Shown: positions 35,477 to 56,990 of the stretch, one piece after another
Position numbering within the stretch: the stretch's first letter is position 1
Layout of the letters: each line of letters starts with the position of its first letter
Sequence record: OQ411014.1
From: Escherichia phage EJP2
Strand: one strand, 5' to 3'
Length of the DNA: 64,000 bases
Program-made: the position numbers and the translations under genes
The notes under the pieces: generated by a model
Database searches by the model: none
Told to the model about the DNA's origin: nothing
The model's input: the letters and a program-made list of their open reading frames with translations, nothing else

Positions 35477-35512
35477 ATGCTTGACTTCGGTCGAGCATTC
35501 TTTTAATATAAT
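35477..35512 (+). promoter_or_regulatory. terminator-promoter module (hairpin containing -35 TTGACT, T-run, -10)
   Basis: ATGCTTGAC-TTCG-GTCGAGCAT hairpin then TTTT then TAATAT. Confidence 0.5.
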
Positions 35513-35549
35513 TGCATCAACTACACTACTACACTTGAGGATAACAATC

Positions 35550-35990
35550 ATGGCTTGGATTCACAGCAATCATTCTGAACTGAACAATTTCGATATCTTT
35601 GCATTCGTGAACATGCAAGAGAAGATCTTCATCAAAGGACGTCTCTGCACGCTCTCTGACGGCTCACGGGCCATCTGTAACATGAACAACAAGGGTGAAG
35701 TACTGGATATCGTTGCTCTTCCTGCGTGGGCTACTGTGCAGCCTGAAGAGGCACTTATGCGTCTACTCTTTGAAGAGATTGGTAAACTTCCAGGTACTGA
35801 TGTGGAGAACAAACTCTTCAACATCAAACACTCCAAGTACAGTGCTGACCAATTATCTGGTTTAACTGATACAGTACTGAAAGAAGTTGTAAGTAATCAA
35901 TGTAACGTAATTCTTAAGTACGTTCCTGAACTGGAACTGACTGAAGAAATGCTAGTGGAATTTGACATCAACGCTAAGGGTTCTCTATGA
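35550..35990 (+). CDS. hypothetical protein (146 aa)
   Basis: ORF track 35481..35990 trimmed (track start is the TTG of the promoter -35); ATG after GAGGA RBS. Confidence 0.55.
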   Translation: MAWIHSNHSELNNFDIFAFVNMQEKIFIKGRLCTLSDGSRAICNMNNKGEVLDIVALPAWATVQPEEALMRLLFEEIGKLPGTDVENKLFNIKHSKYSADQLSGLTDTVLKEVVSNQCNVILKYVPELELTEEMLVEFDINAKGSL

Positions 35991-36349
35991 GACTAATCCT
36001 GTTACTGATTTTGTTAGTAACTGCACAGACGATACCATCTGATTCATATATCGATATAAATCCAGCACGTGAGTTCATTATTTGTACAGACAGAGTAGAC
36101 AGTACTAAAAAGATTGAAGTCCTCTTCGATTCAAGTACTCCAGAATATGTAGTGACGAACAAAGTACAGTACAAATTCATTTCTCACGAAGTTATTGGGG
36201 ATGTAGATGTACTTCAATATAAGTTCGGTTCAAAGACTATGAATTTTGAATTTATTATGCAAGGTGATAAAGTATCTTCTATTCGATTGGAAGTACTTGG
36301 TGCTATCCCTGGTATGGAATTCATGGATGGGGAGTGTAAACTGCTATGA
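35987..36349 (+). CDS. secreted protein (signal peptide)
   Basis: ORF track; N-terminus MRLILLLILLVTAQT. Confidence 0.5.
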   Translation: MRLILLLILLVTAQTIPSDSYIDINPAREFIICTDRVDSTKKIEVLFDSSTPEYVVTNKVQYKFISHEVIGDVDVLQYKFGSKTMNFEFIMQGDKVSSIRLEVLGAIPGMEFMDGECKLL

Positions 36350-36690
36350 TTTCAGTACTGAATAGTATTAGTATTGTTGTTATGATTTTAGCCTGTACCT
36401 ACGCTATCCTAGCTGGGGTGCTCATCTTCTACAAGAAGACTAAGTTCTTGGGGTGGTTACAGATAAGTAAAACTGGCTATTGTTTTGTGTACGGAATAAG
36501 TGCCTTTTGTATATACAGGGATTTATTTTTAGGAGTACTTCCTCCTGATTTCAATGGGTACAACTTTAGTGCAGTGTTCTTATTGTTTTATATTGTACTT
36601 ATTGTGCTTGGTCTTTGTATACCGTATGTACTTATAGTTGGTGTTTCAAAGGTACTTGAGTACCGTAAACGTATTCCTGATGAGGATTGA
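36346..36690 (+). CDS. multi-pass membrane protein (114 aa)
   Basis: ORF track. Confidence 0.5.
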   Translation: MISVLNSISIVVMILACTYAILAGVLIFYKKTKFLGWLQISKTGYCFVYGISAFCIYRDLFLGVLPPDFNGYNFSAVFLLFYIVLIVLGLCIPYVLIVGVSKVLEYRKRIPDED

Positions 36691-36693
36691 TAA

Positions 36694-37023
36694 ATGAAGA
36701 TGGAAGACTTAGTAGAACTATTACAGCCGTACGCTACAGTACTATTTTTGATTGCTTCAATGTATACTGTTGTAACTCTAGTACTTGGATTCTTCAAGTA
36801 TCGAACACTAGCTAAACGCTTAGACGAGAACTTATGGCTCTCTGTTCCTAGTATCTTTAGTGTAGCTATTAGTATTGCAAACTATTTTATTGAAGATCGT
36901 ATGTTCGCTGCTATTATGTTATTATTTGTTTTGGTTGGGGTAACATTTGTAGGTACTATCTATGCAATGTGTAAAGGATTTGTGTACGTTCGTTCCAAGA
37001 TACCAGATCCAGAACAAGAATAA
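36694..37023 (+). CDS. multi-pass membrane protein (109 aa)
   Basis: ORF track; ends KIPDPEQE like previous gene (RIPDED). Confidence 0.5.
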   Translation: MKMEDLVELLQPYATVLFLIASMYTVVTLVLGFFKYRTLAKRLDENLWLSVPSIFSVAISIANYFIEDRMFAAIMLLFVLVGVTFVGTIYAMCKGFVYVRSKIPDPEQE

Positions 37024-37029
37024 TTCTAA

Positions 37030-37058
37030 TTAATGCTCACTTCGGTGAGCATTTTTTT
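37030..37058 (+). terminator. rho-independent terminator
   Basis: GCTCAC-TTCG-GTGAGC hairpin followed by TTTTTTTT. Confidence 0.6.
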
Positions 37059-37074
37059 TATTTTGTGATATAAT
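37045..37074 (+). promoter_or_regulatory. extended -10 promoter (GTGAGC N~16 TGTGATATAAT)
   Basis: Fifth copy of the TGTGATATAAT block; drives a ~580 nt ORF-free region. Confidence 0.45.
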
Positions 37075-37654
37075 TAAGCTATAATCTCGATTAACCATTA
37101 TGGTATAAAGAAACCTAATCCACTCGAAAATGTAGAGGGTAGATGAGTTGAGTAATCGCAACGAAGTGCAAATGAAACCCGTTAGGTGAAGGCATAGTTA
37201 GTACCTCCCACGGCGACGCGGCACTATAAATGAGCATGGTAAGATGATATTGCTCACTCGATAGACGTATAGGATGAACACCTACCAAATATCTAAGGGA
37301 GTTCATCAAAAAGGCTGGCTATAGATCCGTCCAGAATTTGATGAACACAGTACTGAATTGACTGTATAGTTCAGTACTGAAGTGTAGTAAGACTACGACC
37401 GTTGCAGAACAGAGATAGGGAGAAACAGGGCAACCCGCTTCCGTATCGTAAGATAATTCTCTATACAGTACTCCGATGCTATCAGCGTCAGATTGTCGTC
37501 CCTCCCTTGTGGGGGGATGAAATTTCCTCAACAAATCTCGTCAGGATTGATTCAGTACTATTGATATTAAATGAATATTCAGTTATGATACGAAGTATCT
37601 AACGAATACCAGACTTCTCATAAGAGAAGGATGTGATGACCCAAAGGAGATATA
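37075..37654 (+). ncRNA. putative structured non-coding RNA region (identity unknown)
   Basis: No + strand ORF of 60 aa or more across ~580 nt downstream of a promoter; multiple strong inverted repeats. Confidence 0.3.
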
Positions 37655-37903
37655 ATGAAGATTTTCAAATTTATTGCTGCTTCAGTACTAGCACTTTCCC
37701 TAAGTGCGTGTGATCGCGTAACAGAAGAACGTTCGCATGAGTTCGCACTTCCTTCTGAGTTAGTTCAAGCAGGATGTAAGATTTATCGTATGCGAGCTGA
37801 AAGTGGTGTAACTCTATATGCTTTGTATTGTCCTAATTCCACAACCACAACAAGCTACACCAGTGGTAAACAAACTCATCATGTCACTACGTACAGTAAC
37901 TAA
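37655..37903 (+). CDS. lipoprotein (82 aa)
   Basis: ORF track; AAGGAG RBS; signal MKIFKFIAASVLALSLSAC with lipobox LSAC. Confidence 0.55.
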   Translation: MKIFKFIAASVLALSLSACDRVTEERSHEFALPSELVQAGCKIYRMRAESGVTLYALYCPNSTTTTSYTSGKQTHHVTTYSN

Positions 37904-37905
37904 CT

Positions 37906-38676
37906 ATGTTCAAAATATCATACTACTCACCTAAGTGTATAACTGAGCTTACACAGTCAGAGATTGATGGTATTGACTGGACTGAAATAGATCCACCAAC
38001 AATGGATTCTATCCCAGAGGATTATCTACATCACGTCAAGAATCTTCCGATTCTCTTTGAAAAGAGAACACCTGGTACGGTCAGTGATGCGTGTCTTCGT
38101 AAGTTACTTCTCAAAAGCATGAAAGGACGTAGTACGTACTATCGTGATAGTATTTGTGAAAGTCTCTGTGACTGGGCTGGGCCAGAATTTAGTGCTAGAA
38201 ATGTGACAATGTTTGCACGTTTCATGCGAACTGGACCAATGTGGAGAACTAAACTCTACCTTATGAAACATAACATCATTAGCCTAAATGTTTACAGAAG
38301 TACCAAATCATTGAGTTCTGCAAACATGGAAGAAGTGCTGAGTTCTGTACATGTCCCAGTGCAGGAAAAGTTTGAGTACTTACTGCATTCGAATTACATT
38401 TTCGACAAGTACAATATCATTGACGAATCGTGCTTATTCGTTCATAATAAGTATCTCATAGATTTGGGCCTACCACCAATAGTGGTTAACCCTAACTCCA
38501 TGAACGAATATGAAGTACAAGAATGGAGTAATCTCGGATGTCTACAATGGGATGTTCTCCTTGATGCGTACCTTCGTGGAGAAATCGCTCCAGAATATCT
38601 GTATGACATTCATATGATGTTCTTTGATGAAAATAGCATGAAAGATAGAACCTTCTATTTTCGTGATAATGAATAG
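37906..38676 (+). CDS. hypothetical protein (256 aa)
   Basis: ORF track. Confidence 0.6.
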   Translation: MFKISYYSPKCITELTQSEIDGIDWTEIDPPTMDSIPEDYLHHVKNLPILFEKRTPGTVSDACLRKLLLKSMKGRSTYYRDSICESLCDWAGPEFSARNVTMFARFMRTGPMWRTKLYLMKHNIISLNVYRSTKSLSSANMEEVLSSVHVPVQEKFEYLLHSNYIFDKYNIIDESCLFVHNKYLIDLGLPPIVVNPNSMNEYEVQEWSNLGCLQWDVLLDAYLRGEIAPEYLYDIHMMFFDENSMKDRTFYFRDNE

Positions 38677-38682
38677 AATAAT

Positions 38683-38712
38683 ACAGTACAGAAACTTTTC
38701 TGTACTTTTTAA
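38683..38712 (+). terminator. rho-independent terminator
   Basis: CAGTACAGAAA/TTTCTGTACT hairpin followed by TTTTT. Confidence 0.55.
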
Positions 38713-38713
38713 G

Positions 38714-38740
38714 AAAAAAGAGTTGACACAGATTTCAGTA
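38714..38740 (+). promoter_or_regulatory. sigma70-type promoter TTGACA N15 TATAAT with TCAGTACTGA in spacer
   Basis: Spacer and -10 identical to promoter at 18701. Confidence 0.5.
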
Positions 38741-38801
38741 CTGATATAATTACTACATCAAGAACGAACTAACTAAAACACTCAAACATAGGATTAAAAA
38801 T

Positions 38802-38960
38802 ATGCCATATCTTCTGATTATTATCATTTCTTTCGGTGCAGGTATCTACAGTGGTAAAGTGATGTTTGAAAAAGAAATCACTGCTGGTGCTTGTTTGGAC
38901 AACAGTACTAAGTCCATCGGAGAGAAGTATGATGATATTATGAAAATCATCAAAGAATAA
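38802..38960 (+). CDS. small membrane protein (52 aa)
   Basis: Uninterrupted frame found by hand; AGGA RBS; preferred over antisense track ORF 38769..38975. Confidence 0.4.
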   Translation: MPYLLIIIISFGAGIYSGKVMFEKEITAGACLDNSTKSIGEKYDDIMKIIKE

Positions 38961-38987
38961 TTCTACACTATACAAAAGGAAACAACT

Positions 38988-39311
38988 ATGAAAGCTCTAC
39001 GTAACATTATCGCTTATGCAGTAATCTCTATGGGTATGACCTTTGCAGCACATGCAAACAGTTCTATCCTATGTGAATCGGAAAATGGCAAACAGCACGT
39101 TATGAAACATAACAGTACTGTTATGACTGTTCACGGTGAAAACTTCAACTTTGAACAAACTGGCACTCTCAAGAGCGGTGCGGATGTATTTGTTTACTGG
39201 AACCAAGAGCGTACTAAACTATTGGCGGTAACTTCTGCTGATAAGCAAACTATTGTTTATCAAATCATGGATAAGCGTCAACGTGTACTTGACATGGGTA
39301 CTTGTAACTAA
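38988..39311 (+). CDS. secreted protein (signal peptide)
   Basis: ORF track; AAGGAA RBS; N-terminus ends AAHA. Confidence 0.55.
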   Translation: MKALRNIIAYAVISMGMTFAAHANSSILCESENGKQHVMKHNSTVMTVHGENFNFEQTGTLKSGADVFVYWNQERTKLLAVTSADKQTIVYQIMDKRQRVLDMGTCN

Positions 39312-39371
39312 TATACTTTATGGGTGCATTAATATTGATGCACCTAAAACAACTAGCTCTGGAGTTTAGAT

Positions 39372-39677
39372 ATGATTGGTGTAAATTGGAATATCATTGT
39401 ATTATGTGTACCGTTGTTATTCATGACTATTGCAATGCTTGTCCGAATGTGGAAGCCCAGCATCACTGAAAAGGATATCGGATTCAATCCGCTGATTCAG
39501 CTACTCGACAATGTTTTATGTATGTGGGTAGTACTGGCATTCGTTTGGCTCTATGTATTCAATGAAGATTATCTAAACGCCAGAGCAGCACTGTATTCAA
39601 TGATTGCACTTGGGTGGTTGTGGTTGACGTGCTTCACTATTCAAACTACAGTAAAGTTCTTTCAAAATAAGGGTTGA
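39372..39677 (+). CDS. membrane protein (101 aa)
   Basis: ORF track. Confidence 0.5.
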   Translation: MIGVNWNIIVLCVPLLFMTIAMLVRMWKPSITEKDIGFNPLIQLLDNVLCMWVVLAFVWLYVFNEDYLNARAALYSMIALGWLWLTCFTIQTTVKFFQNKG

Positions 39678-39700
39678 CTTCGGTCAACCTTTTTTGAGCC
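39671..39700 (+). terminator. rho-independent terminator (hairpin-with-TTGACT family)
   Basis: GGTTGAC-TTCG-GTCAACC then TTTTTT. Confidence 0.55.
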
Positions 39701-39742
39701 TAATTTTGGGAACTTGATCTAGATCAATGTACAGGAGTAGTA

Positions 39743-40069
39743 ATGAAAAAGATATTTTTCAGCACTTTAGTAGTACTGAGTTTGTTGTCTTTCAATGTTA
39801 GTGCTTTAGAGTGCATAGATGATGCCGATAATCATTACATCATTGAGCCAGGAGAAGAAGATTCAGTACTGATCAATAACACAGAGTTTTATAAACTCAA
39901 TACGGAGGAATTCAAAGATACAGAGACAACCATTCATGATACTTGGTTACAGGATGAATCTGGAACCATTGCATTACTATCAGTAATAACAACAAAGAAA
40001 TCAAAAGAAGTTCAAACTAAACTGCACTTCGTCCAGGGAGATGAAATGTATAAGGGGATTTGTAAGTGA
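39743..40069 (+). CDS. secreted protein (signal peptide)
   Basis: ORF track; AGGAG RBS; N-terminus MKKIFFSTLVVLSLLSFNVSA. Confidence 0.55.
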   Translation: MKKIFFSTLVVLSLLSFNVSALECIDDADNHYIIEPGEEDSVLINNTEFYKLNTEEFKDTETTIHDTWLQDESGTIALLSVITTKKSKEVQTKLHFVQGDEMYKGICK

Positions 40070-40371
40070 ATACAACACGCGTCATAAACTATGTCATGGC
40101 AGACATGAAACAAGCGTACGAAGATGCATACGTACGTTACTTAGGGAAAGAGGAAGTTATTGCGACGCGAGTATACCTTGCATATGAGATGAGTTGTTCT
40201 ACACACCCTTCACTGAATAGCAAAGAAAACGCTAAGTTATTTCGTAAAGTAATTATTGACCACTACCGTAAAAACGGGTATCATATCCCTAGTGTTATGA
40301 AACTCTTCATGAATGTGATTCCTTCTAAGTATTCAGTTCATGGGGACTACGAGCCATTAACCTTAGAGTGA
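40066..40371 (+). CDS. hypothetical protein (101 aa)
   Basis: ORF track. Confidence 0.5.
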   Translation: MNTTRVINYVMADMKQAYEDAYVRYLGKEEVIATRVYLAYEMSCSTHPSLNSKENAKLFRKVIIDHYRKNGYHIPSVMKLFMNVIPSKYSVHGDYEPLTLE

Positions 40372-40377
40372 TAAACC

Positions 40378-40710
40378 ATGCAACTAAGAGAAGTACCATT
40401 AGTCCTGCCAGTACTGGCAAATTGTGTAGTACTGTTGATATTTGTATACGCATTCTTTGAATGTTTGTGTCACTTATATGTAACAGGAAGATACAGAAAC
40501 AAGTTCTTTGAGTACTCAAGAGTAGACGTAATTGCTTCAACATATTGTACGTTACTGTCGAGTACTTTGGTATGTGCTTTCTGTGTTTATATATTACCGG
40601 ACACATATTTCGCATTGACTATGTGGGCTATGATATCTAATGGTGCTGCTTTGATGTACCTGATATACATCGTGGACTACTGGAATCTAAAAAGAACTAA
40701 ACGTATATGA
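40378..40710 (+). CDS. membrane protein (110 aa)
   Basis: ORF track. Confidence 0.5.
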   Translation: MQLREVPLVLPVLANCVVLLIFVYAFFECLCHLYVTGRYRNKFFEYSRVDVIASTYCTLLSSTLVCAFCVYILPDTYFALTMWAMISNGAALMYLIYIVDYWNLKRTKRI

Positions 40711-40832
40711 TTTTATTCTTTATTTTATGTAGTACTGTAGTGTATACTCTCTTCGCTCCAAAGAAATCTACTATACAGATCTTGAGCGAAGAGATTAATA
40801 AATCCAAATCTAAATCCAATAAGGAGAAGTAA

Positions 40833-41084: not shown

Positions 41085-41088
41085 GAAC

Positions 41089-44018: not shown

Positions 44019-44040
44019 ATAACAATTCAGTACTGAAGAA

Positions 44041-44073
44041 TGGGTTGACTTAGGTCAGCCCTTTTGTTATAAA
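44041..44073 (+). promoter_or_regulatory. terminator-promoter module (GGGTTGACTTAGGTCAGCCC hairpin, T-run, TATAAA)
   Basis: -35 TTGACT inside hairpin stem, 17 nt spacer, -10 TATAAA. Confidence 0.55.
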
Positions 44074-44120: not shown

Positions 44121-45641
44121 ATGCCAAATGATATGAAACACAAGAATGGTGCATTAGTACAACACTCTGACAAATGGAGTGAAGCTAATCGTCGTAAGAA
44201 TTCACACAACGCAGGCCAAGGATCTCGTGGCTCTCGCAATCAGGGGACTGGTGAAGCTGGTAAAGCTAATACAGTTGCTTCTGGTGGTATGGACACTTCC
44301 AATATGTCTCAACATGAGAAACTAAAGTACTTCAACAGTTTAGGACTCCTAAACCCTACACAGAAGAAGCAATTACAAGACATGGACGCTGCTGCATCTG
44401 CACCAAAAGAACAGCCACAGCAAGCTCCTAAAGCTGCTCCTGCTGGTAATCCTGTCAAAGAGCTATCTGATAACTTAGGTCGTATCTTTGCACAGAAGCC
44501 TAATCTAATTCAAGGTATTGTAAAAGAACTACAAGCAGTACCGAAGGAAGAGCTAAAGAGTAAAGCACAAGCTGTACTTGATGCTATGAAAGGCAATCGC
44601 AGTACTGAACCAACCGAAGTATTCAGTACTATCATGCGTGCACTTCAAGCTAAACCACAAGCTGCTCCAGCACAGAAAGCACCTAAGATGGACAGTGCAC
44701 AGGACATGTCAGATTTGTTTGGTAAAGTTGGTGCTGAAGGTAAGAACAACGCACAACAAGTCAAGAACGTCCAAGCTAAGATTATTGATCGTTTAGGTGA
44801 TAATCAAGACAAGACTAAGCGGGCATTTGACGCATTGAACAAAGCACTTGAATCTTATGTTCCTGGTGAGAAAGACAAGTTCCAGACCATCATGAACGCA
44901 GTCTTTGGTGAAATGAAGAAGTACGAAGCAGAGCACGGTGAGAAGGTATCATCTGATGGCTATATGATTCGTAAAGACGAAGAAGGTGCAGTAGACCAGA
45001 AAGATGCTCCTAAAGAGCAAGAAGACCTACCTGATACAGTTGATATGGATGGTTACATTTCTCGTCCAGATGAATATGACTTCGGTTCAGACAAAGAAGG
45101 TTATGAGTATGCTATGGACATTTATCGTTTCCTAGCTAAGAACTATGATTATGCTAACAAGTACGTAGATCAGTTTGTCAGTGCTTGGGATAATTACAAA
45201 GATAAAGGTTATGACTTCCCTGCGGAAGCTGCATTCTTTGAGTTAGGTAAACTACTCCAGAAAGATGGTGTAGAGATTGGCTCGAAAGAAGATACTTCTA
45301 GTCTAGATGCAGAATTGGCAAAAGACCGTCAAATGACACCAGGTTCTAAAGCTGAATTGAATAAGCTCCTATCATGGATTGTTGACATTGGTAAAAATGC
45401 TGGTAAAGATAACAAGAGTATCAACCGCAGTATTTCTTGGATCAATAATAAAATTGATAACAACGGGCGTAAGCTACAGAAAGCATGGAGTGATTTAGTC
45501 AATGGTGCAGATGAGATCGATATTGATTCTCCTGAAGCATATGAGTATGCGATGACGACTCTAGACAATTCCTTCCAGGACTATGAAAATGGTAATCTAA
45601 CTGCTAGTGAACAAGACATCATGCGTTCACACGGAAAATAA
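44121..45641 (+). CDS. large A/K/Q/P-rich protein (506 aa)
   Basis: ORF track; GGAGAG RBS; low-complexity N-terminal half; host-like codon usage. Confidence 0.65.
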   Translation: MPNDMKHKNGALVQHSDKWSEANRRKNSHNAGQGSRGSRNQGTGEAGKANTVASGGMDTSNMSQHEKLKYFNSLGLLNPTQKKQLQDMDAAASAPKEQPQQAPKAAPAGNPVKELSDNLGRIFAQKPNLIQGIVKELQAVPKEELKSKAQAVLDAMKGNRSTEPTEVFSTIMRALQAKPQAAPAQKAPKMDSAQDMSDLFGKVGAEGKNNAQQVKNVQAKIIDRLGDNQDKTKRAFDALNKALESYVPGEKDKFQTIMNAVFGEMKKYEAEHGEKVSSDGYMIRKDEEGAVDQKDAPKEQEDLPDTVDMDGYISRPDEYDFGSDKEGYEYAMDIYRFLAKNYDYANKYVDQFVSAWDNYKDKGYDFPAEAAFFELGKLLQKDGVEIGSKEDTSSLDAELAKDRQMTPGSKAELNKLLSWIVDIGKNAGKDNKSINRSISWINNKIDNNGRKLQKAWSDLVNGADEIDIDSPEAYEYAMTTLDNSFQDYENGNLTASEQDIMRSHGK

Positions 45642-45654
45642 GTAAAAATAAGGG

Positions 45655-45683
45655 TTGACATATGTCATCCCTTTTTGTATCCT
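45655..45683 (+). promoter_or_regulatory. terminator-promoter module variant (GGGTTGACATATGTCATCCC)
   Basis: Hairpin with TTGACA in stem followed by TTTTT and weak -10. Confidence 0.45.
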
Positions 45684-47082: not shown

Positions 47083-47095
47083 CATCATAAAAGGG

Positions 47096-47124
47096 TTGAC
47101 TTCGGTCAGCCCTTTCTGTATTAT
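47096..47124 (+). promoter_or_regulatory. terminator-promoter module (GGGTTGACTTCGGTCAGCCC, TATTAT)
   Basis: -35 TTGACT in hairpin stem, 17 nt spacer, -10 TATTAT. Confidence 0.55.
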
Positions 47125-47151: not shown

Positions 47152-47580
47152 ATGCGTGTATTTCGTTTTGAATTAAAATATTCTATTCTTGAAGGTAAGT
47201 ACAACTCTATCATTACTGGTATGGGACCATTCACATGGTACTACAAAGATTACAGTACTGAAGCTGGCTACCGTGCACTTGAAATGAAAACGCTTGAAGA
47301 GTGTCAACCAGAGCCAGAGGATGATGGTATTCATGCTATTAAGAACGGATGGGCTTTTGGGTGTGACTCACTGGAATCGCTGTATGAGTTCTTTAATGCT
47401 GATATCCAGGCTTTGAGTGCTGCTGGGTTTGCAGTGTCTGAATATGAAGTTCCTTATCAGCACGTAGACATTGGTCTACATCAAGTACAGTACTACAAAA
47501 AGAGTGCACAATTGCTAGCTATCCATGATGTGAATGAAATATTCAAATCAGTACTTGACAATTGTACTGTTCAGTACTAA
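47152..47580 (+). CDS. hypothetical protein (142 aa)
   Basis: ORF track; GAGAGGA RBS. Confidence 0.55.
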   Translation: MRVFRFELKYSILEGKYNSIITGMGPFTWYYKDYSTEAGYRALEMKTLEECQPEPEDDGIHAIKNGWAFGCDSLESLYEFFNADIQALSAAGFAVSEYEVPYQHVDIGLHQVQYYKKSAQLLAIHDVNEIFKSVLDNCTVQY

Positions 47581-48826: not shown

Positions 48827-48832
48827 AAGAAA

Positions 48833-48856
48833 AAAGGAGACTTTGTAGTCTCCTTT
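48833..48856. terminator. bidirectional rho-independent terminator
   Basis: AAAGGAGAC-TTTGT-AGTCTCCTTT between convergent genes. Confidence 0.6.
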
Positions 48857-48860
48857 CTTT

Positions 48861-50039
48861 TTATGGTAAATCAAATTCCGTATATGAATATTTGTATACA
48901 CCATCTGGTCCACGACCTGAGTATCGTAATTTACCAGAAGTAGTTATATATGCTGAAGTAATATTACTAGTACTGAATATGTTAAACACTGACTTCATAT
49001 CATTCACTGTACCGTTACCGAATGGTATCAGGTTAAGTTCATTGCCGTTGACACCAGTACTCAATCTTCCTGAAGAATTTGCTCCACAACCATATGCATT
49101 TGATGGGCTAAGAGCAACGTAACCAGTATTACTAGTATAATAACTTAGTAAACCAATAAAATTCTCTGTAGTGGCTATTTCAGTAAAGACTCTAATATTG
49201 ACAGAACTATTCACTCCATTACCTAAGTTTCCAGCATTCTGGCTTCCCGCAGCATATAGATGTGTTTTACCAGTACCGTCACTGTACAATATTGTGAATG
49301 CTGATTCAGTTAGACCAATATCAAAAACACTAAGACCTGGGTCTGGTAGTGGTACTTGTGTTAGCACATTTATTCTTGTATCTGGATGACCAATACCGAG
49401 TTGACCAAATGAGTTTGAACCTGAAACCCAAACACTTAAATCATTTTTTAATATCAGTACTGATGAATTAACAAATTCAACTTTTTGAACATCTGATGTA
49501 AGTTTTGAGAAAGTAGTTAGTGCAAGATAATTACCAGTTGCTAGTTGGCCTTGGTTATTAAAACCGCTTCTATAAAGATCACCATTGTTCATTAATATAT
49601 ATAATGCATATACACCAGCATGAACAGATGTTATTTGATTAAGATTCCCTGTACCTATACCAGCTTCAATAAATGGGGTACAATCAGTATATGATGTCAC
49701 AACTTCAGTAGATGATGTATTGCCAGTTTGAAAGCTACGGCGACCAGTATATAATAATTTTCCATCCATAGTTTTAATGATAACAAAACTTGTGTTTGTA
49801 CACCAAACATCTTGAACATCATCTCTGATTAAAGTCCACTCTAGCTTTTGTTCTGTTGGCTTTCCATCCCCATAGATATAATTATCAACTGTTCCTCCAC
49901 CGATACCATACAATCTGTTATCATCATATAATACCATAAATGCCGGACGAGACGATGCATAAGGTACTAATATTTTTGTAATTTCAGGTAATGAAGGTGC
50001 TTTATTACCATAATTAAGCATTCGTACAAAAGGTAACAT
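48861..50039 (-). CDS. RCC1-like repeat (beta-propeller) protein (392 aa)
   Basis: ORF track; GGAGA RBS on minus strand; repeated G-x-N-x-x-G-Q/N-L-G motifs (GFNNQGQLATG, GSNSFGQLGIG, GSQNAGNLGNG). Confidence 0.65.
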   Translation of the reverse strand: MLPFVRMLNYGNKAPSLPEITKILVPYASSRPAFMVLYDDNRLYGIGGGTVDNYIYGDGKPTEQKLEWTLIRDDVQDVWCTNTSFVIIKTMDGKLLYTGRRSFQTGNTSSTEVVTSYTDCTPFIEAGIGTGNLNQITSVHAGVYALYILMNNGDLYRSGFNNQGQLATGNYLALTTFSKLTSDVQKVEFVNSSVLILKNDLSVWVSGSNSFGQLGIGHPDTRINVLTQVPLPDPGLSVFDIGLTESAFTILYSDGTGKTHLYAAGSQNAGNLGNGVNSSVNIRVFTEIATTENFIGLLSYYTSNTGYVALSPSNAYGCGANSSGRLSTGVNGNELNLIPFGNGTVNDMKSVFNIFSTSNITSAYITTSGKLRYSGRGPDGVYKYSYTEFDLP

Positions 50040-50976: not shown

Positions 50977-51126
50977 ATGGAACGTGTATACTTGAACGTA
51001 ATCACTGGTGCTAAACGTAAGTTCATCGGCAAAGAAGGATATTTCTGGATGAACAATAAGCAGTGGGTTCCTAATGGTACATCAGAAGAACTCATCAAAG
51101 CATTACCATATTACAAAGTACTCTAA
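50977..51126 (+). CDS. small hypothetical protein (49 aa)
   Basis: Uninterrupted frame found by hand; AAGAGGA RBS. Confidence 0.4.
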   Translation: MERVYLNVITGAKRKFIGKEGYFWMNNKQWVPNGTSEELIKALPYYKVL

Positions 51127-51143
51127 CTATAGGAATCAATCCC

Positions 51144-51791: not shown

Positions 51792-51950
51792 ATGAATCAT
51801 GATAAGATTCAAGAAATTGAAGAGAAGCGTAATCACTTAAACGCACTCACGTATGAAATGACACAGACTGCTGATGTGGTGATGGGAGTATTATCAACAT
51901 CCGCAGTTCTTTCAGTACTGATAGCGATTTATATATTTTTCTTGTCATGA
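51792..51950 (+). CDS. small tail-anchored membrane protein (52 aa)
   Basis: Uninterrupted frame found by hand; strong AGGAGG RBS; C-terminal hydrophobic helix. Confidence 0.45.
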   Translation: MNHDKIQEIEEKRNHLNALTYEMTQTADVVMGVLSTSAVLSVLIAIYIFFLS

Positions 51951-52016
51951 AGTGTTTGACAATCTTAGTATCATCTAGTATGATGTTTGTACTATAATGA
52001 TATAAGGAAATACAAA

Positions 52017-52262
52017 ATGAAATTTATTAGTGCAATTATTCTTTCGATGACTTTATTGGTTGGATGTTCAACTGATTTCATGAAAGAAGCATACGTTGGT
52101 GAAGTGAATGGACGTACAATCGTCTTCTTCAAAGATATCCAACGTAACGGTATGCAGTACTACACTCCGCAGTTTGCATCTGTATGCCGTGATATGTTCG
52201 GGGTAAGTTCACCATGTAGGATAAAAGAAACTGCAATCAAAAACATTCGTCCATACAAATAA
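52017..52262 (+). CDS. lipoprotein (81 aa)
   Basis: ORF track 51987..52262 (TTG) trimmed to ATG after TAAGGAAA RBS; signal MKFISAIILSMTLLVGCS with lipobox LVGC. Confidence 0.55.
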   Translation: MKFISAIILSMTLLVGCSTDFMKEAYVGEVNGRTIVFFKDIQRNGMQYYTPQFASVCRDMFGVSSPCRIKETAIKNIRPYK

Positions 52263-52273
52263 GGAAACACAAT

Positions 52274-52597
52274 ATGTTTATTCTTTCTTTCCCACTGTTC
52301 GTTCTGCTTATCTGTTATATTGCAGTAGTAGCAGTAGGTTCTAAGTACAAAGATCTCCCTGAATATCTGAACATTGGTGACGGTCAAACAAATTCGCTAC
52401 GCTTTGTTCTGGGTGCAACGTTTGTATCATTAGGGTTCCAAATTCTTGGTCTGTTCTTTGCGTTTGCAATTAGTCTAGGACTGTTGTTTTCAACTATTGC
52501 TTCAGTCCTTGCGTGGTGGTGGTTGTTTGAAACATTCCAGTCTGGTAAGATCAAGATCTGGTACAAAGATGCTAAAGCATATTTCGATCAGGACTAA
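52274..52597 (+). CDS. multi-pass membrane protein (107 aa)
   Basis: ORF track; TAAGGAAA RBS. Confidence 0.5.
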   Translation: MFILSFPLFVLLICYIAVVAVGSKYKDLPEYLNIGDGQTNSLRFVLGATFVSLGFQILGLFFAFAISLGLLFSTIASVLAWWWLFETFQSGKIKIWYKDAKAYFDQD

Positions 52598-52615
52598 TTG
52601 ATTCATTGTTTCATC

Positions 52616-52645
52616 GGGGTTAACATGTGTTAGCCCTTTTTTGTA
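52616..52645 (+). terminator. rho-independent terminator (variant of hairpin family)
   Basis: GGGGTTAACA-TGTG-TTAGCCC hairpin followed by TTTTTT. Confidence 0.5.
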
Positions 52646-52652
52646 GGTAATA

Positions 52653-53036
52653 ATGCGAGCGATGATTAGTATAGATAAGAAAGGTGCAACTCGGATTGTA
52701 TTCTTGACGAAGAGATACGCAATCAAGATACCATCTTTCTATTCGTGGAAAATGTTCTTACATGGATTGATTGCTAATCTAAATGAAAGAGCATTCAAAG
52801 AGTACTCATGTTCTCCTGGTTCTGGATTATGCCCTACTGTATATGCGTCAGGAACGGGTCTAATAAGCATTCAGAAGAGATGTTTACCAGTACAGCACAG
52901 AGGTATGTTCTGGGTGGAATTGGCTCACCTAGCGTGCAGTACTGTACTACATGAGGACTTCTTTTATTCGGATGCGAAGCCTGAGAACTTCGGGTATATA
53001 GATGGGAAGTTAGTAAAATTGGATTACGGAGATTGA
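52653..53036 (+). CDS. protein kinase-like protein, N-lobe plus catalytic loop only (127 aa; possibly truncated or split)
   Basis: ORF track; YAIKIP (VAIK-like lysine), HEDFFYSDAKPENFGY (HRD-LKPEN-like catalytic loop), KLDYG (DFG-like); frame ends right after DYG. Confidence 0.5.
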   Translation: MRAMISIDKKGATRIVFLTKRYAIKIPSFYSWKMFLHGLIANLNERAFKEYSCSPGSGLCPTVYASGTGLISIQKRCLPVQHRGMFWVELAHLACSTVLHEDFFYSDAKPENFGYIDGKLVKLDYGD

Positions 53037-53037
53037 T

Positions 53038-53226
53038 ATGCTAATTTACAATAACAATGGTATTAGAGTACTTCAGCATGAATACTTACAAGTGTTTCAT
53101 GTACAGAAGTTCATGGAGGGTGATAATCCTCGGAGCTATGGTCGTACGATGGATTACTTCACTGTAAAGGAATGCTATAGTATTCAAGAAGTTCGTGAAG
53201 TTGTATCTGAATTACTTGAAGAATAA
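53038..53226 (+). CDS. hypothetical protein (62 aa), possibly C-terminal part of split kinase-like gene
   Basis: ORF track; begins 2 nt after previous stop in another frame. Confidence 0.4.
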   Translation: MLIYNNNGIRVLQHEYLQVFHVQKFMEGDNPRSYGRTMDYFTVKECYSIQEVREVVSELLEE

Positions 53227-53239
53227 TATTAGAAAGGGG

Positions 53240-53269
53240 TTGACTTCGGTCGGCCCTTTTTGTTATAAT
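53240..53269 (+). promoter_or_regulatory. terminator-promoter module (GGGGTTGACTTCGGTCGGCCC, TATAAT)
   Basis: -35 TTGACT in hairpin, T-run, -10 TATAAT. Confidence 0.55.
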
Positions 53270-53301
53270 CATTACATCGACAACCAATAGGAAATCTAAA
53301 A

Positions 53302-53964
53302 ATGCCAATTCCATTGTTTCATGAAAGTAATACATTCACTATCTACAAAAATAATGGCGAACTGAAGACTATTCACTTCACTGGTCACAAAGTAGGTTTG
53401 TATTACAAGTTGTATTCAATCCTACGTAAGAGTCACAACTTCAATATGCCTTCAGTAACTGTACGTGATATTACAGGGCGGGTATTATCCAATGGAAACT
53501 TCTTGGATATCTATTTTGAGTTGATTGATGTATTGAAAGCAGAACACAAGTACTCAATCATGACGACCAATAGTGTTGGTGAAGATCTATATCACTTCCG
53601 TGATGAACCTGAAGGTGTACTGCAACAACTGAAGCATCTGAGAGATACATATACTAAAAATGGTGATCCGCGTCGTTTTGAATATCACACAGTAGTACGA
53701 AGAGATGACTCATCGTTTATTCGTAACAAGTTGGATTATTTGATTATAGAATACCAGAAAATTGCTGATGCAGAGAACTCAGAGAAAGCTGGCGAAACCG
53801 ACTGCATTGGTGAAACTGGCGAAATGGGGTTAGGTGTGTACCTGGAGTTCGATGAAGTAGTGAACGATATGCGTGAGCAAATCAAATCAGGTACTGACAA
53901 AGAGAAGATTGAAGCTAAAGCAGTACTGTCATATATCGCTACTAAAATAGCACTGAAACAGTAA
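53302..53964 (+). CDS. hypothetical protein (220 aa), paralog of 48230 gene
   Basis: ORF track; TAGGAAA RBS; shared C-terminal block. Confidence 0.6.
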   Translation: MPIPLFHESNTFTIYKNNGELKTIHFTGHKVGLYYKLYSILRKSHNFNMPSVTVRDITGRVLSNGNFLDIYFELIDVLKAEHKYSIMTTNSVGEDLYHFRDEPEGVLQQLKHLRDTYTKNGDPRRFEYHTVVRRDDSSFIRNKLDYLIIEYQKIADAENSEKAGETDCIGETGEMGLGVYLEFDEVVNDMREQIKSGTDKEKIEAKAVLSYIATKIALKQ

Positions 53965-53974
53965 AATAAAAGGG

Positions 53975-54004
53975 TTGACTTCGGTCGGCCCTTTTTGCTA
54001 TAAT
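53975..54004 (+). promoter_or_regulatory. terminator-promoter module (GGGTTGACTTCGGTCGGCCC, TATAAT)
   Basis: Same architecture as 53240 copy. Confidence 0.55.
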
Positions 54005-54034
54005 CATTTCAACTTCTGATGAAAGGAAAATTAT

Positions 54035-54283
54035 ATGTTCGCACTACGCCACAAAGAAACAAAGAACTTCATGTGTATTGATACACAGTGGGATTGCTTT
54101 GGTAGTACTGAAGTATTGGAAGAACACGCTGAGAACGTCTTTGTTGTTAGTGAACGTTCATTGTTGGAAGCACTAATTGAGGACTTCAATGCTGGTACTA
54201 ATGCATTCTCTCTGAACTTTCCGGTTGTTGCAGATCCAGAAGCATTTGTTATGTACGAAATTGTAGAACTTACTGTGAAATAG
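54035..54283 (+). CDS. hypothetical protein (82 aa)
   Basis: ORF track; AAAGGAAA RBS. Confidence 0.5.
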   Translation: MFALRHKETKNFMCIDTQWDCFGSTEVLEEHAENVFVVSERSLLEALIEDFNAGTNAFSLNFPVVADPEAFVMYEIVELTVK

Positions 54284-54300
54284 TATCATTGGAGATAACC

Positions 54301-54597
54301 ATGAAAGCACTGACCGCCGTAGAAATCAAAGAGCAATACAAAGATTTATTCGAGTTTAAACACAACGGTGAAGAATTCAAACGTAGTAGTACTGTACGTG
54401 ACTTCTTGAACAAACTCTTCTGTACTAAGTTCAAAGCTGCGTACATTACTATGCCTGAGCGTACTTCAAGTGCAGAAGATATCAAGAAGTTCGGTTTAGG
54501 TTGGGATGCACAATCAATCATCCTGGTGAATGCAGATGAAGAGCTAGTGTACTTGACTAACTCCGAGTGGGCTTCTTTCATGTATCTTCGTAAATAA
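54301..54597 (+). CDS. hypothetical protein (98 aa)
   Basis: ORF track 54289..54597 (TTG) trimmed to ATG after GGAGA RBS. Confidence 0.5.
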   Translation: MKALTAVEIKEQYKDLFEFKHNGEEFKRSSTVRDFLNKLFCTKFKAAYITMPERTSSAEDIKKFGLGWDAQSIILVNADEELVYLTNSEWASFMYLRK

Positions 54598-54606
54598 GGA
54601 ACTATA

Positions 54607-54789
54607 ATGAAACTGAAACGTTATGACCGCAATCGTATTATGGATGCTTTGTATCGTGAAGAAATTTCACTCAATAAGGTGAAAGTGTACTTTATGTTAG
54701 AAGGACGGCTTCCAGCACGTAAAGCTAAACAGTTAGCTATTGAACTGTTGAACGAAGGTATTGAGTACTGGCATTATGACGGATATTGA
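54607..54789 (+). CDS. hypothetical protein (60 aa)
   Basis: ORF track; TAAGGAA RBS. Confidence 0.45.
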   Translation: MKLKRYDRNRIMDALYREEISLNKVKVYFMLEGRLPARKAKQLAIELLNEGIEYWHYDGY

Positions 54790-54800
54790 TTTGTGAAATA

Positions 54801-54856
54801 AAAGGTTGACTTCGGTCAGCCTTTTTCGTATTATGTACTCATCGAAACGAAGGAGA
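54801..54856 (+). repeat. repeated ~55 bp promoter-leader cassette, copy 1 (hairpin with TTGACT, TATTAT, leader, AAGGAG)
   Basis: Near-identical to copies at 56641 and 56937. Confidence 0.6.
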
Positions 54857-54865
54857 TATAAAAAA

Positions 54866-55102
54866 ATGAAACTATCTTTTATACGATTGGGTCAATTCTT
54901 CGGTACTAATGTTATAACTTTACAACAAATTGCAGATAATACATCTCTAACGATTCAAGAAGTACTTGACTTGGATGACATAAATTACGATACTACATGT
55001 ATCGAGTACAAAGAAGGTCTTATCGAAAAGGATAAGATTCAGGCTAAAATTAATGGTGCTGGAAAAGTTCAGTACTGGAAGGGAGTGTTAAGTAATGTGT
55101 AA
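54866..55102 (+). CDS. hypothetical protein (78 aa)
   Basis: ORF track 54806..55102 trimmed: track start is TTG of the promoter -35 and the first 20 codons translate the cassette; ATG after AAGGAG RBS. Confidence 0.5.
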   Translation: MKLSFIRLGQFFGTNVITLQQIADNTSLTIQEVLDLDDINYDTTCIEYKEGLIEKDKIQAKINGAGKVQYWKGVLSNV

Positions 55103-56192
55103 CTTTGATGTTTTAGATTGTTTTTCTGTAGATGAAATTATTTATGAACCCAAATCACATAATTCAGTATCCCCAGGGCAATATGAAAAGAAAATAACAG
55201 AGTTATTTTCATTAAATGATCATAATGTTGTTTTTATCGGATTCAATATGAAAACCGCCAATGAATGGCAAGCGGGTGATACTAAAGTACATTTTAAACT
55301 CGTCAACAAATATTACGAGGATATTTTTTCTGATGTGACAATAGAAAAGATTATCAAAAAATTTAAGAAAAAAACCTACAAACCTAAACATAAAAAATTA
55401 ACAATGGAAATTATTGAATATCAGGCCAAGGCTGTATCTTACTTAAAAGGCCATCGGATTATATCATTTGGTCCATTTGATGGTGCACTCACTAAAATTG
55501 AGATGGAATGTCTAATGGATTCACATACGTGGTCTACCAGTTACAATTCATATGTGACAAATGACAAAGGTTGTGTTAAATGTGGAATTGTAGTGACCTC
55601 TGAGTTTCACCGGACAAATCACGATGATGTGAACTTGTTCTTAAAAGAAAATGGAGATATTAACAATTATGATTTATATGAAGAATTCATATATTCTAAT
55701 AATTTAACAATAATAAAAAGAATTTGCAAAATATGTAATCATGGTAAATGTGGAGAATGGAAAACGTCTTATGAATGCATTAAGAATCGTGATCATCAGT
55801 GTCCAGTATGTAAGACAACTGAAGCTCGGTGCATCAAACGTGATCTAGATCCGATTTTTAGTGGGTTCGGTGTGGTAGAATGTGAAAAAAAATATGATGA
55901 TTGTAGGATGATTAATCATTTACGCTACGACCGCTTCATCCCGAAACTCAACATGTTATTTGAATATGATGGAGAGCAACATTTCAATAAGAGGAACATT
56001 CGTTGGCATGGTGAAAGTGGTGAAAAACGTGATCAAATAAAAACAGAGTTCGCAATCAACAACGGTTACAACTTCATTAGGATTGCATACTATGAAGACC
56101 ACGTTGCAGTACTGGAATCTTTCCTTAAACTCATAGAAGAGAACCCAGGAAAGCAAATCGTACAGATCTATGGTGATGTGAAAATTATCTAA
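55095..56192 (+). CDS. PD-(D/E)xK nuclease-like protein (Vsr/DUF559-like), possible homing endonuclease
   Basis: ORF track; C-terminal FEYDGEQHF..RDQIKTEFAINNGYNFIRI resembles E-x-DG-x-x-H..RD..GW-x-x-R nuclease core; Cys-rich middle; markedly AT-rich. Confidence 0.5.
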   Translation: MCNFDVLDCFSVDEIIYEPKSHNSVSPGQYEKKITELFSLNDHNVVFIGFNMKTANEWQAGDTKVHFKLVNKYYEDIFSDVTIEKIIKKFKKKTYKPKHKKLTMEIIEYQAKAVSYLKGHRIISFGPFDGALTKIEMECLMDSHTWSTSYNSYVTNDKGCVKCGIVVTSEFHRTNHDDVNLFLKENGDINNYDLYEEFIYSNNLTIIKRICKICNHGKCGEWKTSYECIKNRDHQCPVCKTTEARCIKRDLDPIFSGFGVVECEKKYDDCRMINHLRYDRFIPKLNMLFEYDGEQHFNKRNIRWHGESGEKRDQIKTEFAINNGYNFIRIAYYEDHVAVLESFLKLIEENPGKQIVQIYGDVKII

Positions 56193-56201
56193 AATAAAAG
56201 G

Positions 56202-56230
56202 TTGACTTCGGTCAGCCTTTTTGCTATTAT
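56202..56230 (+). promoter_or_regulatory. terminator-promoter module (GGTTGACTTCGGTCAGCC, TATTAT)
   Basis: -35 in hairpin, 17 nt spacer. Confidence 0.55.
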
Positions 56231-56366
56231 ATCAGTACTATCAATGTGAAAGAGTTCGATAAACATCTGAAGAAGAATGGCTTCGATACGAACAACTTTG
56301 CTATCAGTAGTATTACTGAAATCATGATTCAATACAACATTATTGTAGATACATTACGAGGGTAAA

Positions 56367-56633
56367 ATGAAACCAATCACAACAACACAGAGTACTAACC
56401 TAACGGTTTTACATGATGGTTTAAAAGGTACAGTACGTGATCTTCTGAACTTCATTGATAGTATTCAAGGTGATACCGGATACTGCATTTATACTACTAT
56501 CATTCCTGGTGGTACAGAACTGTACTTCACCAATATGGAAGTATCGGAATCGGGTGAAACTGATGATTCATTCCAAGAAGCCATCCAACAATTTCAGGAA
56601 TCCTTAGAGGATTTAGGTTTTACGGTACAATGA
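56367..56633 (+). CDS. hypothetical protein (88 aa)
   Basis: ORF track; GAGGG RBS. Confidence 0.5.
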   Translation: MKPITTTQSTNLTVLHDGLKGTVRDLLNFIDSIQGDTGYCIYTTIIPGGTELYFTNMEVSESGETDDSFQEAIQQFQESLEDLGFTVQ

Positions 56634-56640
56634 CGAAAAA

Positions 56641-56698
56641 AAGGTTGACTTCGGTCAGCCTTTTTCGTATTATGTACTCATCGAAACGAAGGAGATTA
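56641..56698 (+). repeat. repeated promoter-leader cassette, copy 2
   Basis: AAGGTTGACTTCGGTCAGCCTTTTTCGTATTATGTACTCATCGAAACGAAGGAGAT. Confidence 0.6.
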
Positions 56699-56700
56699 TT

Positions 56701-56832
56701 ATGTATATTTTAATAGTGGAGTACTGCTTCTATACTCTATGGATTTACTTAGGTTGTCGATATGGCTTACCTTTATTTGGTAAGTACTTCTTAGATTCTG
56801 GTTCAGACAAATATGGCGAGAGAAATGACTAA
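56701..56832 (+). CDS. small hydrophobic protein (43 aa)
   Basis: ATG directly downstream of cassette RBS; uninterrupted frame found by hand. Confidence 0.35.
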   Translation: MYILIVEYCFYTLWIYLGCRYGLPLFGKYFLDSGSDKYGERND

Positions 56833-56936
56833 AGGAATGCAGAAGTTAAACTGTTCGTGAAAACTCAAGACTGGCCTGAAGTTGTACAGCAAGTAATATG
56901 TTCATTCACTAAGACTGAACTAATATAAGAAAAAAT

Positions 56937-56990
56937 GGTTGACTTCGGTCAGCCTTTTTCGTATTATGTACTCATCGAAACGAAACGTAC
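56937..56990 (+). repeat. repeated promoter-leader cassette, copy 3
   Basis: Same cassette; explains identical spurious N-terminus MTSVSLFRIMYSSKR of track ORFs 54806 and 56939. Confidence 0.6.

Follow-up and report, generated by a model that had tools for sequence, protein, structure and literature searches.

Described systems and the elements of phage EJP2

In the T4-like bacteriophages RB49 and phi1, Arbiol et al. (2010; PMC2839356) described repeated intergenic motifs composed of a consensus sigma-70 promoter, an AT-rich upstream tract and a stem-loop, a class known as PeSLs (promoter-early stem-loops). As reported there, the stem-loop of one PeSL lowered the expression of a lacZ reporter to an extent similar to that of the strong rrnB T1 terminator, the strength of the promoters prevented their intact cloning, and recombination between neighbouring PeSLs excises open reading frames (ORFs) as mini-circles. 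Comeau, Arbiol and Krisch (2014; PMC4122927) extended the PeSLs to T4/PST and nt-1/KVP40 and gave for nt-1 the consensus A3-4G3-loop-C3T3-4 with TTGYVH-N17-TAWWAT. In this study we analysed a stretch of 64,000 nucleotides (nt) of Escherichia phage EJP2 (OQ411014.1; hereafter the window), in which 12 compact elements, judged by their sequence, are most probably PeSL-type cassettes. In these elements a terminator-like hairpin and a promoter share bases, the stem covaries as an RNA does, the hairpin is coupled to a −10 box, the copies lie between genes in one orientation, and breakpoints between relatives fall at them.

The nearest records to the window were the jumbo myoviruses 121Q, PBECO4 and G17 (Asteriusvirus) and Turkey5, with 10-13% query coverage and 87-95% identity, and by these matches the source is a divergent 121Q/RaK2-like jumbo phage. 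It must be stressed that the idea itself, the experiments behind it and its evolutionary interpretation date from the publications of 2010 and 2014, and that the element of the window is most probably a PeSL in a clade where it had carried no such name. Its host, an Asteriusvirus-related jumbo myovirus, lies outside the T4-like group from which the class is known, a difference of taxonomic range and not of mechanism. Our literature search found no paper applying the PeSL concept to jumbo phages, and a full-text search for the core TTGACTTCGGTCA returned one unrelated paper only.

The likeness to the nt-1/KVP40 PeSLs is extensive. Both have an early promoter of the sigma-70 type, with boxes about 17 nt apart joined to a terminator-like stem-loop, an AT-rich upstream tract and, downstream, a Shine-Dalgarno (SD) sequence and a start codon; both are multi-copy and intergenic, among small ORFs, and occur at indels or replacements between close relatives. 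The published nt-1 consensus also fits the window elements (PMC4122927), and the nt-1 sequence, read directly (AAAAGGGTTGACACATGTCAGCCCTTTTTGTATTAT...CATCAAAACGAAAC; AAAAGGGTTGACACATGTCAGCCCTTTTTGTATTATAGCTACATCAAAACGAAAC), has the window layout, with the −35 box inside the 5′ arm and a similar leader.

The RB49/phi1 PeSLs share with the window elements near-perfect sigma-70 boxes that physically overlap a G/C stem-loop, but in the window family the stem-loop encloses the −35 box and not the spacer or the −10 box. In the PeSL papers the stem-loop is placed before the promoter, in the spacer or over the −10 box, and a −35 box serving as stem is not stated in those descriptions. The window hairpin also differs in being dominated by one sequence with a UUCG tetraloop. 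Measured activity and mini-circles are, in this class, known from RB49/phi1 only.

Composites of the RB49/phi1 style occur in the window as well:

17354-17399 and 18701-18728: stems enclosing the −10 box.

19934-19962: a G5/C4 stem that fills the spacer, TTGACA-TAGGGGGAATCTTCCCC-TATAAT.

60481-60539: a classic terminator followed, 5 nt on, by TTGACA-18-TATGAT.

In all, 23 intergenic TTGAC-N16-18-TAnnnT sites were found on the + strand of the window. Promoters of the plain kind, with no stem, occur too.

The same physical sites appear in the catalogues of RaK2-like phages, namely CBB (Buttimer et al., 2017; PMC5259590) and the GenBank records of G17 and GAP32. In the CBB supplement, GGGTTGACTTCGGTCAGCCC... 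sites are the terminators Torf515, Torf518 and Torf520, and a related site is the promoter Porf_41 of the MEME table. As these catalogues list them, each site is either a promoter or a terminator, and a dual element or recombination site is not described in those entries.

Census and placement of the elements

Searched with up to 3 mismatches, the pattern GGTTGACTTCGGTCAGCC was found 9 times, on the + strand in every case, whereas dinucleotide-preserving shuffles gave an expectation of 0.03 and a maximum of 1. With a looser regular expression and by direct reading, 35481, 45655 and 52620 were added, and all 12 sites of an earlier note on this DNA, which had claimed at least 12 copies, were then found. 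The −35 boxes start at 35481, 39674, 44045, 45655, 47096, 52620, 53240, 53975, 54806, 56202, 56645 and 56939. The positions in the earlier note mixed hairpin starts with −35 starts, each lying no more than 5 nt from the true one.

GGGTTGACTTCGGTCAGCC-type sequences stand at all 12 places. Ten are close to consensus, with the layout (A-tract)-(G)GGTTGAC-TTCG-GTC[AG][AG]CC(C)-T4-5; the single consensus that the earlier note gave for every copy describes these ten, but not the divergent hairpins at 45655 (GGGTTGACATATGTCATCCC) and 52620 (GGGGTTAACATGTGTTAGCCC). It had also assigned TATAAT or TATTAT to every copy, which is true of 7, while the −10 box is weak in 3 and absent in 2. It was right in placing the −35 box inside the upstream arm of a tetraloop hairpin: the last five bases of the 5′ arm are TTGAC, the first loop base completes TTGACT, and loop, 3′ arm and T-run make up the spacer. 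The 12 elements are as follows.

Element 1, 35476-35509, + strand: hairpin AATGCTTGAC-TTCG-GTCGAGCATT at 35476-35499, −35 box TTGACT at 35481-35486, weak −10 box TAATAT at 35504-35509; −13.4 kcal/mol, z −6.0; next ORF from 35550.

Element 2, 39671-39695, + strand: perfect palindrome GGTTGAC-TTCG-GTCAACC followed by T6; no −10 box at 16-18 nt from the −35 box at 39674.

Element 3, 44042-44073, + strand: hairpin GGGTTGAC-TTAG-GTCAGCCC at 44042-44061, −10-like TATAAA at 44068-44073, its final T missing; upstream of an ORF of 506 amino acids (aa) at 44121-45641.

Element 4, divergent, 45652-45683, + strand: GGGTTGAC-ATAT-GTCATCCC with 1 internal mismatch, −35 box TTGACA, weak −10 box TATCCT at 45678-45683.

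Element 5, 47090-47124, + strand: hairpin AAAGGGTTGAC-TTCG-GTCAGCCCTTT, −35 box at 47096-47101, −10 box TATTAT at 47119-47124; −16.8 kcal/mol; next ORF from 47152.

Element 6, divergent, 52616-52643, + strand: hairpin GGGGTTAAC-ATGT-GTTAGCCCT followed by T6 (3′ arm also given as GTTAGCCC); in this copy (52620) the 5′ arm has changed from G to A and the 3′ arm correspondingly from C to T, which keeps the hairpin and loses the −35 box (TTAACA), and no −10 box stands at promoter spacing.

Element 7, 53237-53269, + strand: GGGTTGAC-TTCG-GTCGGCCC with two U.G wobble pairs, T5, TG-extended −10 box TATAAT at 53264-53269, 18-nt spacer; −17.7 kcal/mol.

Element 8, 53972-54004, + strand: the hairpin of element 7, TG-extended −10 box TATAAT at 53999-54004; elements 7 and 8 bracket a single 220-aa ORF, 53302-53964.

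Element 9, 54804-54834, + strand: GGTTGAC-TTCG-GTCAGCC, T5, −10 box TATTAT at 54829-54834, then GTACTCATCGAAACGAAGGAG; the end of a 97%-identity block common to Turkey5 lies just 3′ of it.

Element 10, 56200-56230, + strand: the hairpin of element 9, TG-extended −10 box TATTAT at 56225-56230; start of a 98.8%-identity block common to Turkey5.

Element 11, 56643-56673, + strand: 98% identical to element 9 over 61 nt; left boundary of a 294-base-pair (bp) cassette with a 43-aa ORF, absent from Turkey5 and G17.

Element 12, 56937-56967, + strand: right boundary of the 294-bp cassette, upstream of a 256-aa ORF at 57005-57775.

By their sequence, elements 2 and 6 look like terminators only. A further hairpin, AATGCTCAC-TTCG-GTGAGCATT with T8 at 37032-37053 (+ strand), resembles element 1 without TTGAC and looks like a terminator-only relative of it, with matched changes in both arms.

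All copies lie in gaps between + strand ORFs, in a window about 92% covered by ORFs. In 10 copies the preceding ORF stops 9-26 nt ahead of the −35 box; at 39674 its stop codon overlaps the box, and at 56939 the distance is 106 nt. Counted from the first base of the −35 box, the following ORF starts 33-76 nt on in 11 copies and 165 nt on at 56202. The 12 copies lie in 21.5 kb of small, mostly unannotated ORFs without family matches, downstream of a sigma-70-family gene (33759-34751); no copy of this element type was found in the first 35 kb of the window. The earlier note had put an element at each gene boundary, which did not hold: the elements occupy only 12 of about 52 ORF boundaries and thereby split about 53 ORFs into units of 1-12 ORFs.

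The hairpin

All 12 copies fold into a hairpin of 8-11 bp with a 4-nt loop, with energies from −11.4 to −17.7 kcal/mol and z-scores from −2.8 to −6.0 relative to shuffles. What was found agrees with an intrinsic terminator: a G+C-rich stem of at least 5 bp, a loop within 3-8 nt and a U-rich tract immediately 3′. A terminator consensus scan called 7 of the 12, the remaining five having the same stem and T4-5, and for the relatives G17, GAP32 and CBB the records or supplements list these hairpins as terminators called by ARNold. In an Rfam scan of the whole window only six transfer RNAs (tRNAs) matched, all within the first 13 kb, and nothing at the elements.

For comparison, 66 non-redundant elements were collected from the window, Turkey5, G17, CBB, RaK2, 121Q, 7t3, CR9, Aeromonas phage 65, nt-1 and metagenomic viral contigs, with filters that demanded TTGAC and at least 7 of 8 stem pairs. 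Matches in an exact 14-mer scan of the viral contigs were mostly due to chance (about 100 of 125 lacked a complementary 3′ arm), and only copies with the full hairpin were kept. A gap-free alignment of 65 distinct 36-nt segments served for the study of covariation.

In these segments five stem pairs change on both sides (GGG/CCC, AGG/CCU, UGG/CCA, GGA/UCC, UAC/GUA, GAG/CUC, UGC/GCA). The observed covariation score was reached by none of 500 shuffles, and the pairing collapses when the partners are slid. The inner stem behaves differently: TTGAC is fixed in the 5′ arm, and the only variation in the 3′ arm is A or G facing U and C or U facing G. One inner pair (columns 15 and 28, e.g., 54806/54819 of the window) is U.G in 54 of the 65 and U-A in only 9. 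Since such wobble pairs hold only in the + strand RNA, it is there that the hairpin would act; the core has −10 to −13 kcal/mol in the sense RNA and −5 to −8 in the antisense RNA, a difference of about 5 kcal/mol. UNCG and GNRA are stable classes of RNA tetraloop, and the loops (mainly UUCG, UACG, UCCG, GAAA, GCGA, GUAA and GAGA) mostly belong to one or the other.

A covarying outer stem with a 3′ arm that changes by wobble only fits a sense-strand RNA hairpin facing a 5′ arm that is presumably fixed by its −35 function. It may be speculated that the U.G preference at the inner pair works against a perfect palindrome in the DNA or against TTGAC appearing as a mirror image on the bottom strand. 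A DNA cruciform was rejected on account of the T.G mismatches that most copies have at the DNA level, and a bidirectional terminator was rejected for most copies in view of the low stability of the antisense core.

The predicted promoter

A strong −10 box (TATTAT or TATAAT) stands 17-18 nt from the −35 box at 47096, 53240, 53975, 54806, 56202, 56645 and 56939. Throughout the collection, a −10-like hexamer at 17 or 18 nt was found in 60 of the 66 elements (TATTAT in 29, TATAAT in 12), preceded by TG in 43 of these 60; in the window, TG is present at 53240, 53975 and 56202 and missing at 54806, 56645, 56939 and 47096. An A-rich tract, with the consensus nnTnAAAAAAA before GGGTTGAC, lies upstream of the −35 box. 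In 8 of the 9 window copies that pass the −10 test, an SD sequence and ATG follow 28-41 nt after the −10 box, the distance at 56202 being 137 nt.

As a control, the exact hairpin with its T-run was searched in one genome per species of 185,579 bacterial and archaeal species. It occurred 18 times, the identical 18-mer hairpin being present in genomes of Acinetobacter, Vibrio, Exiguobacterium and Bdellovibrio. These sites share with the window elements the G+C-rich stem, the 4-nt loop, the T-run and the upstream A-tract, but they are always single-copy, their T-runs are longer (6-7 T) and 16 of the 18 have no −10 box at promoter spacing (60/66 phage versus 2/18 bacterial copies, Fisher p = 1.5e-10). 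It is therefore a peculiarity of the phages that the hairpin is coupled to a −10 box and present in many copies. A constant TTGAC facing a 3′ arm that drifts by wobble suggests a second constraint on the 5′ arm.

Which polymerase would use this promoter must also be considered. Some 700 nt ahead of the first element, the gene at 33759-34751 (+ strand) codes for a protein of 330 aa that has Sigma70_r2 and Sigma70_r3 domains, and its homologues are conserved in Turkey5, 7t3 and CBB; both facts would suit a promoter read by the phage's own factor and not by host sigma-70, with units that would be middle and not immediate-early. We regard this as unlikely. TTGACT-17-TATTAT with an UP-like A-tract and TG corresponds to the preference of host sigma-70, and elements almost the same as these are present in nt-1, Aeromonas phage 65 and CR9, where no sigma gene is annotated within the 6-12 kb read around them (whole genomes not covered). 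Furthermore, the authors of CBB take the short hypothetical ORFs around the sigma-factor gene of that phage as the early, host-transcribed region and place there RpoD-like promoters with UP-like tracts (PMC5259590).

A second explanation, that these are plain intrinsic terminators at which no transcript begins, the TTGAC of the stem and the TA-rich hexamer being there by chance, is very unlikely. It would agree with the annotation of the hairpins in G17, GAP32 and CBB as terminators only, with the lone terminator-like sites that the same hairpin forms in bacteria, and with the absence of a −10 box at 39674 and 52620. It leaves without explanation the exact 17-18 nt at which the −10 box stands in phages and seldom in bacteria, the frequent TG, the retention of TTGAC in the 5′ arm, and the SD sequence and ATG at a regular distance, and Porf_41, in the promoter table that CBB's own authors made with MEME, is one such element (PMC5259590).

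With regard to the leader, many copies share 5-6 nt after the −10 box and then CATCGAAACGAA, the A of CAT standing where the start site would be expected. This sequence goes beyond the rules for promoters and terminators and may be an initial transcribed sequence or a translation leader. The leader (N5-6)CATCGAAACGAA is at 54835-54857, 56674-56696 and 56968-56985 of the window and is common to Turkey5, RaK2, viral contigs, nt-1 (locus L121, around 6050) and CR9 (locus L124, around 3045). Several elements of relatives (contig L008; 121Q, locus L073; CBB, locus L092) have the conserved motif ACTAACCCAYAGGGTGC, which includes a small CCC/GGG stem, about 20 nt after the −10 box; this motif had no match in the window.

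Probable recombination at the elements

The comparison for recombination was made with two relatives, Turkey5 and G17. The only high-identity blocks shared with Turkey5 are 54023-54851 (97%), 56191-56690 (98.8%) and 56929-57777 (90%), and of the six block ends five are no more than about 50 nt from an element. The two ORFs that the window has between elements 54806 and 56202 (54866-56192) are also present in G17; in their place Turkey5 has an unrelated DUF4379 gene between two elements. Downstream, a nested series is formed by G17 with one element, Turkey5 with two around an 88-aa ORF and the window with three around that ORF and the 43-aa ORF. The series amounts to two cassette indels, in each of which the lone element resembles one window copy in its left flank and a different one in its right flank. 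In addition, the Turkey5 junction of ORF, element 16171 and ORF is split in the window into ORF 53038-53226 with element 53240 and element 47096 with ORF 47152-47580.

Elements 54806, 56645 and 56939 are 89-98% identical over 61 nt, beyond the constrained bases, and three G17 copies, read from their sequences, are near-identical too. Such identity between neighbouring copies is as expected for exchange or conversion among them, and crossovers appear to fall anywhere in the shared 45-60 nt. The 220-aa ORF between elements 7 and 8 added no further clear case of a travelling cassette, as in 7t3 it lies inside a larger unit without direct element flanks; its homologues were found only in five Salmonella and Klebsiella jumbo phages.

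That the elements are dedicated mobile-DNA sites, attC-like or resembling miniature inverted-repeat transposable elements (MITEs), with a folded DNA hairpin recognised by a recombinase or nuclease and a secondary likeness to regulatory signals, is highly improbable: direct repeats bounding single-ORF cassettes, indels at the copies and the comparison by Arbiol et al. of PeSL cassettes with integron cassettes (PMC2839356) would suit it, but the T.G mismatch in DNA of 54 of 65 copies, the RNA-type loops, the lack of an integrase or transposase among the ten larger ORFs scanned against Pfam (most small ORFs lying outside that scan) and crossovers apparently spread as in homologous exchange all speak against it.

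Proposed mechanism and its weak points

Taken as PeSL-type cassettes, the elements could work as follows. In the upstream mRNA, the A-tract/GGGUUGAC-UUCG-GUCAGCCC/U4-5 sequence would fold into a tetraloop hairpin with a U-run, that is, an intrinsic terminator, which probably also serves as a protective 3′ end of that transcript. In double-stranded DNA the same bases would act as the UP-like A-tract, the −35 box TTGACT and the 17-18 nt spacer of a near-consensus sigma-70 promoter, directly followed by the −10 box, often with TG ahead, from which host sigma-70 polymerase would start some 7 nt downstream. Because of this start position, the new transcript would not contain the hairpin and would not be terminated by it, and since termination and initiation share one element, each copy would close one early unit of 1-12 small ORFs and open the next. 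As 45-60 nt cassettes in direct repeat, the elements could also allow homologous recombination to delete, insert or exchange the ORFs that they flank. Termination within the T-run, initiation by host sigma-70 and the recombination pathway are predicted here from consensus rules and from the tested RB49/phi1 PeSLs.

Much of what the earlier note had expected of the element is supported by these data. Termination of the upstream transcript is made plausible by the stable G+C-rich stem, the tetraloop, the T-run and the ARNold calls in relatives, and renewed initiation by TTGAC(T), spacer, −10 box, TG, A-tract and the downstream SD sequence and ATG. Its proposal that one compact element does both agrees with sequence and comparative evidence, but two copies have no promoter. 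Its suggestions that copies flank variable gene content in related phages and that their repetition provides a substrate for cassette shuffling are in keeping with the breakpoints, the replacement and the two nested indels relative to Turkey5 and G17.

Several points weigh against this interpretation. The phage encodes a sigma-70-family protein of its own, and host sigma-70 is consequently not the sole candidate. The −10 box is weak at 35481 (TAATAT), 45655 (TATCCT) and 44045 (TATAAA), in addition to the two copies without one. The U-run is short, with 4-5 U before G or C, and termination may be partial, in the manner of an attenuator rather than a full stop. It is also expected that a promoter-bound polymerase would block an incoming one before the termination point, making the insulation less clean, with some interference. 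The figure of 97% paired is partly built in by the collection filters, and the copies are related and not independent. Lastly, the comparison covered two relatives only, and most of 35-53 kb has almost no nucleotide similarity to either.

If the elements are PeSLs, both the cassettes and their link with gene shuffling extend from T4-like phages to the RaK2/121Q clade of jumbo phages. For annotation, hairpins listed as terminators in this clade would in most cases also point to an early promoter and to the limit of an exchangeable cassette. Moreover, the element would be a compact natural design, about 45 nt that combine terminator and strong promoter on shared bases, of possible use to builders of genetic insulators.

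Spread of the element among phages

A search with the 43-nt consensus gave 1140 places in 320 phage records. The 121Q-like coliphages have 9-12 places per genome, Erwinia phage Hallingskeid 14, Salmonella phage 7t3 11 and the KVP40/nt-1-like vibriophages 4-8; Aeromonas phage 65, Cronobacter phage CR9 and related Pectobacterium phages have 1-2 each. Viral contig L008 (108,897 bp) was considered as T5-like, which was rejected since its matches are Salmonella, Klebsiella and Escherichia jumbo phages. As it is a RaK2-like fragment, the element is not evidenced in siphoviruses.

Aeromonas phage 65, CR9 and G17 have the same core sequence over about 30 nt. Much of this identity is forced by the joint demands of −35 box, UUCG tetraloop, G/C clamp, T-run and −10 box at 17-18 nt. 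No such constraint is obvious for the shared leader, and horizontal spread is therefore still a live possibility. A near-identical cassette of about 55 nt (A-tract, GGGTTGAC-UUCG-GTCAGCCC, T4-5, (TG)TATTAT, 5-6 nt, CATCGAAACGAA) is found in at least three lineages of large, virulent phages whose hosts differ, i.e., the RaK2/121Q-like jumbo phages, Straboviridae (nt-1, Aeromonas phage 65) and Vequintavirinae (CR9). Tentatively, and with considerable doubt, we suggest that the cassette moves horizontally between phage families with the ORFs that it flanks, for example as PeSL mini-circles, instead of having arisen by convergence, and that the leader AUCGAAACGAA may have a function of its own in promoter escape or translation.

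Other features of the window

An 8-bp palindrome, CAGTACTG, occurs 84 times throughout the window, about once per 740 bp, against 1.1 expected (largest shuffle count 4). Examples are 139-146, 14778-14785, 38736-38743, 44028-44035 and 61832-61839, and several lie in promoter spacers; AGTACT occurs 240 times in the window. The palindrome is mostly inside ORFs and mainly in two of the three reading frames, a distribution that suggests selection at the DNA level. It is dense in the loci of RaK2 (31 in 11 kb), 121Q, CBB, Turkey5 and G17 and absent from the nt-1, CR9 and Aeromonas phage 65 loci examined; a full-text literature search for it gave nothing useful.

The six tRNA genes (Thr-TGT, Ser-TGA, Arg-TCT, Ser-ACT, Ser-GCT and Met-CAT) lie at 682-12769 on the + strand, some of them in intergenic gaps after consensus promoters. 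Two ORFs with RCC1-like repeats, 48861-50039 and 62571-63701, are on the − strand amid an otherwise + strand region; a terminator at 48830-48859 that looks bidirectional borders the first of them. In Turkey5, about ten genes with RCC1-like repeats are arranged in tandem.

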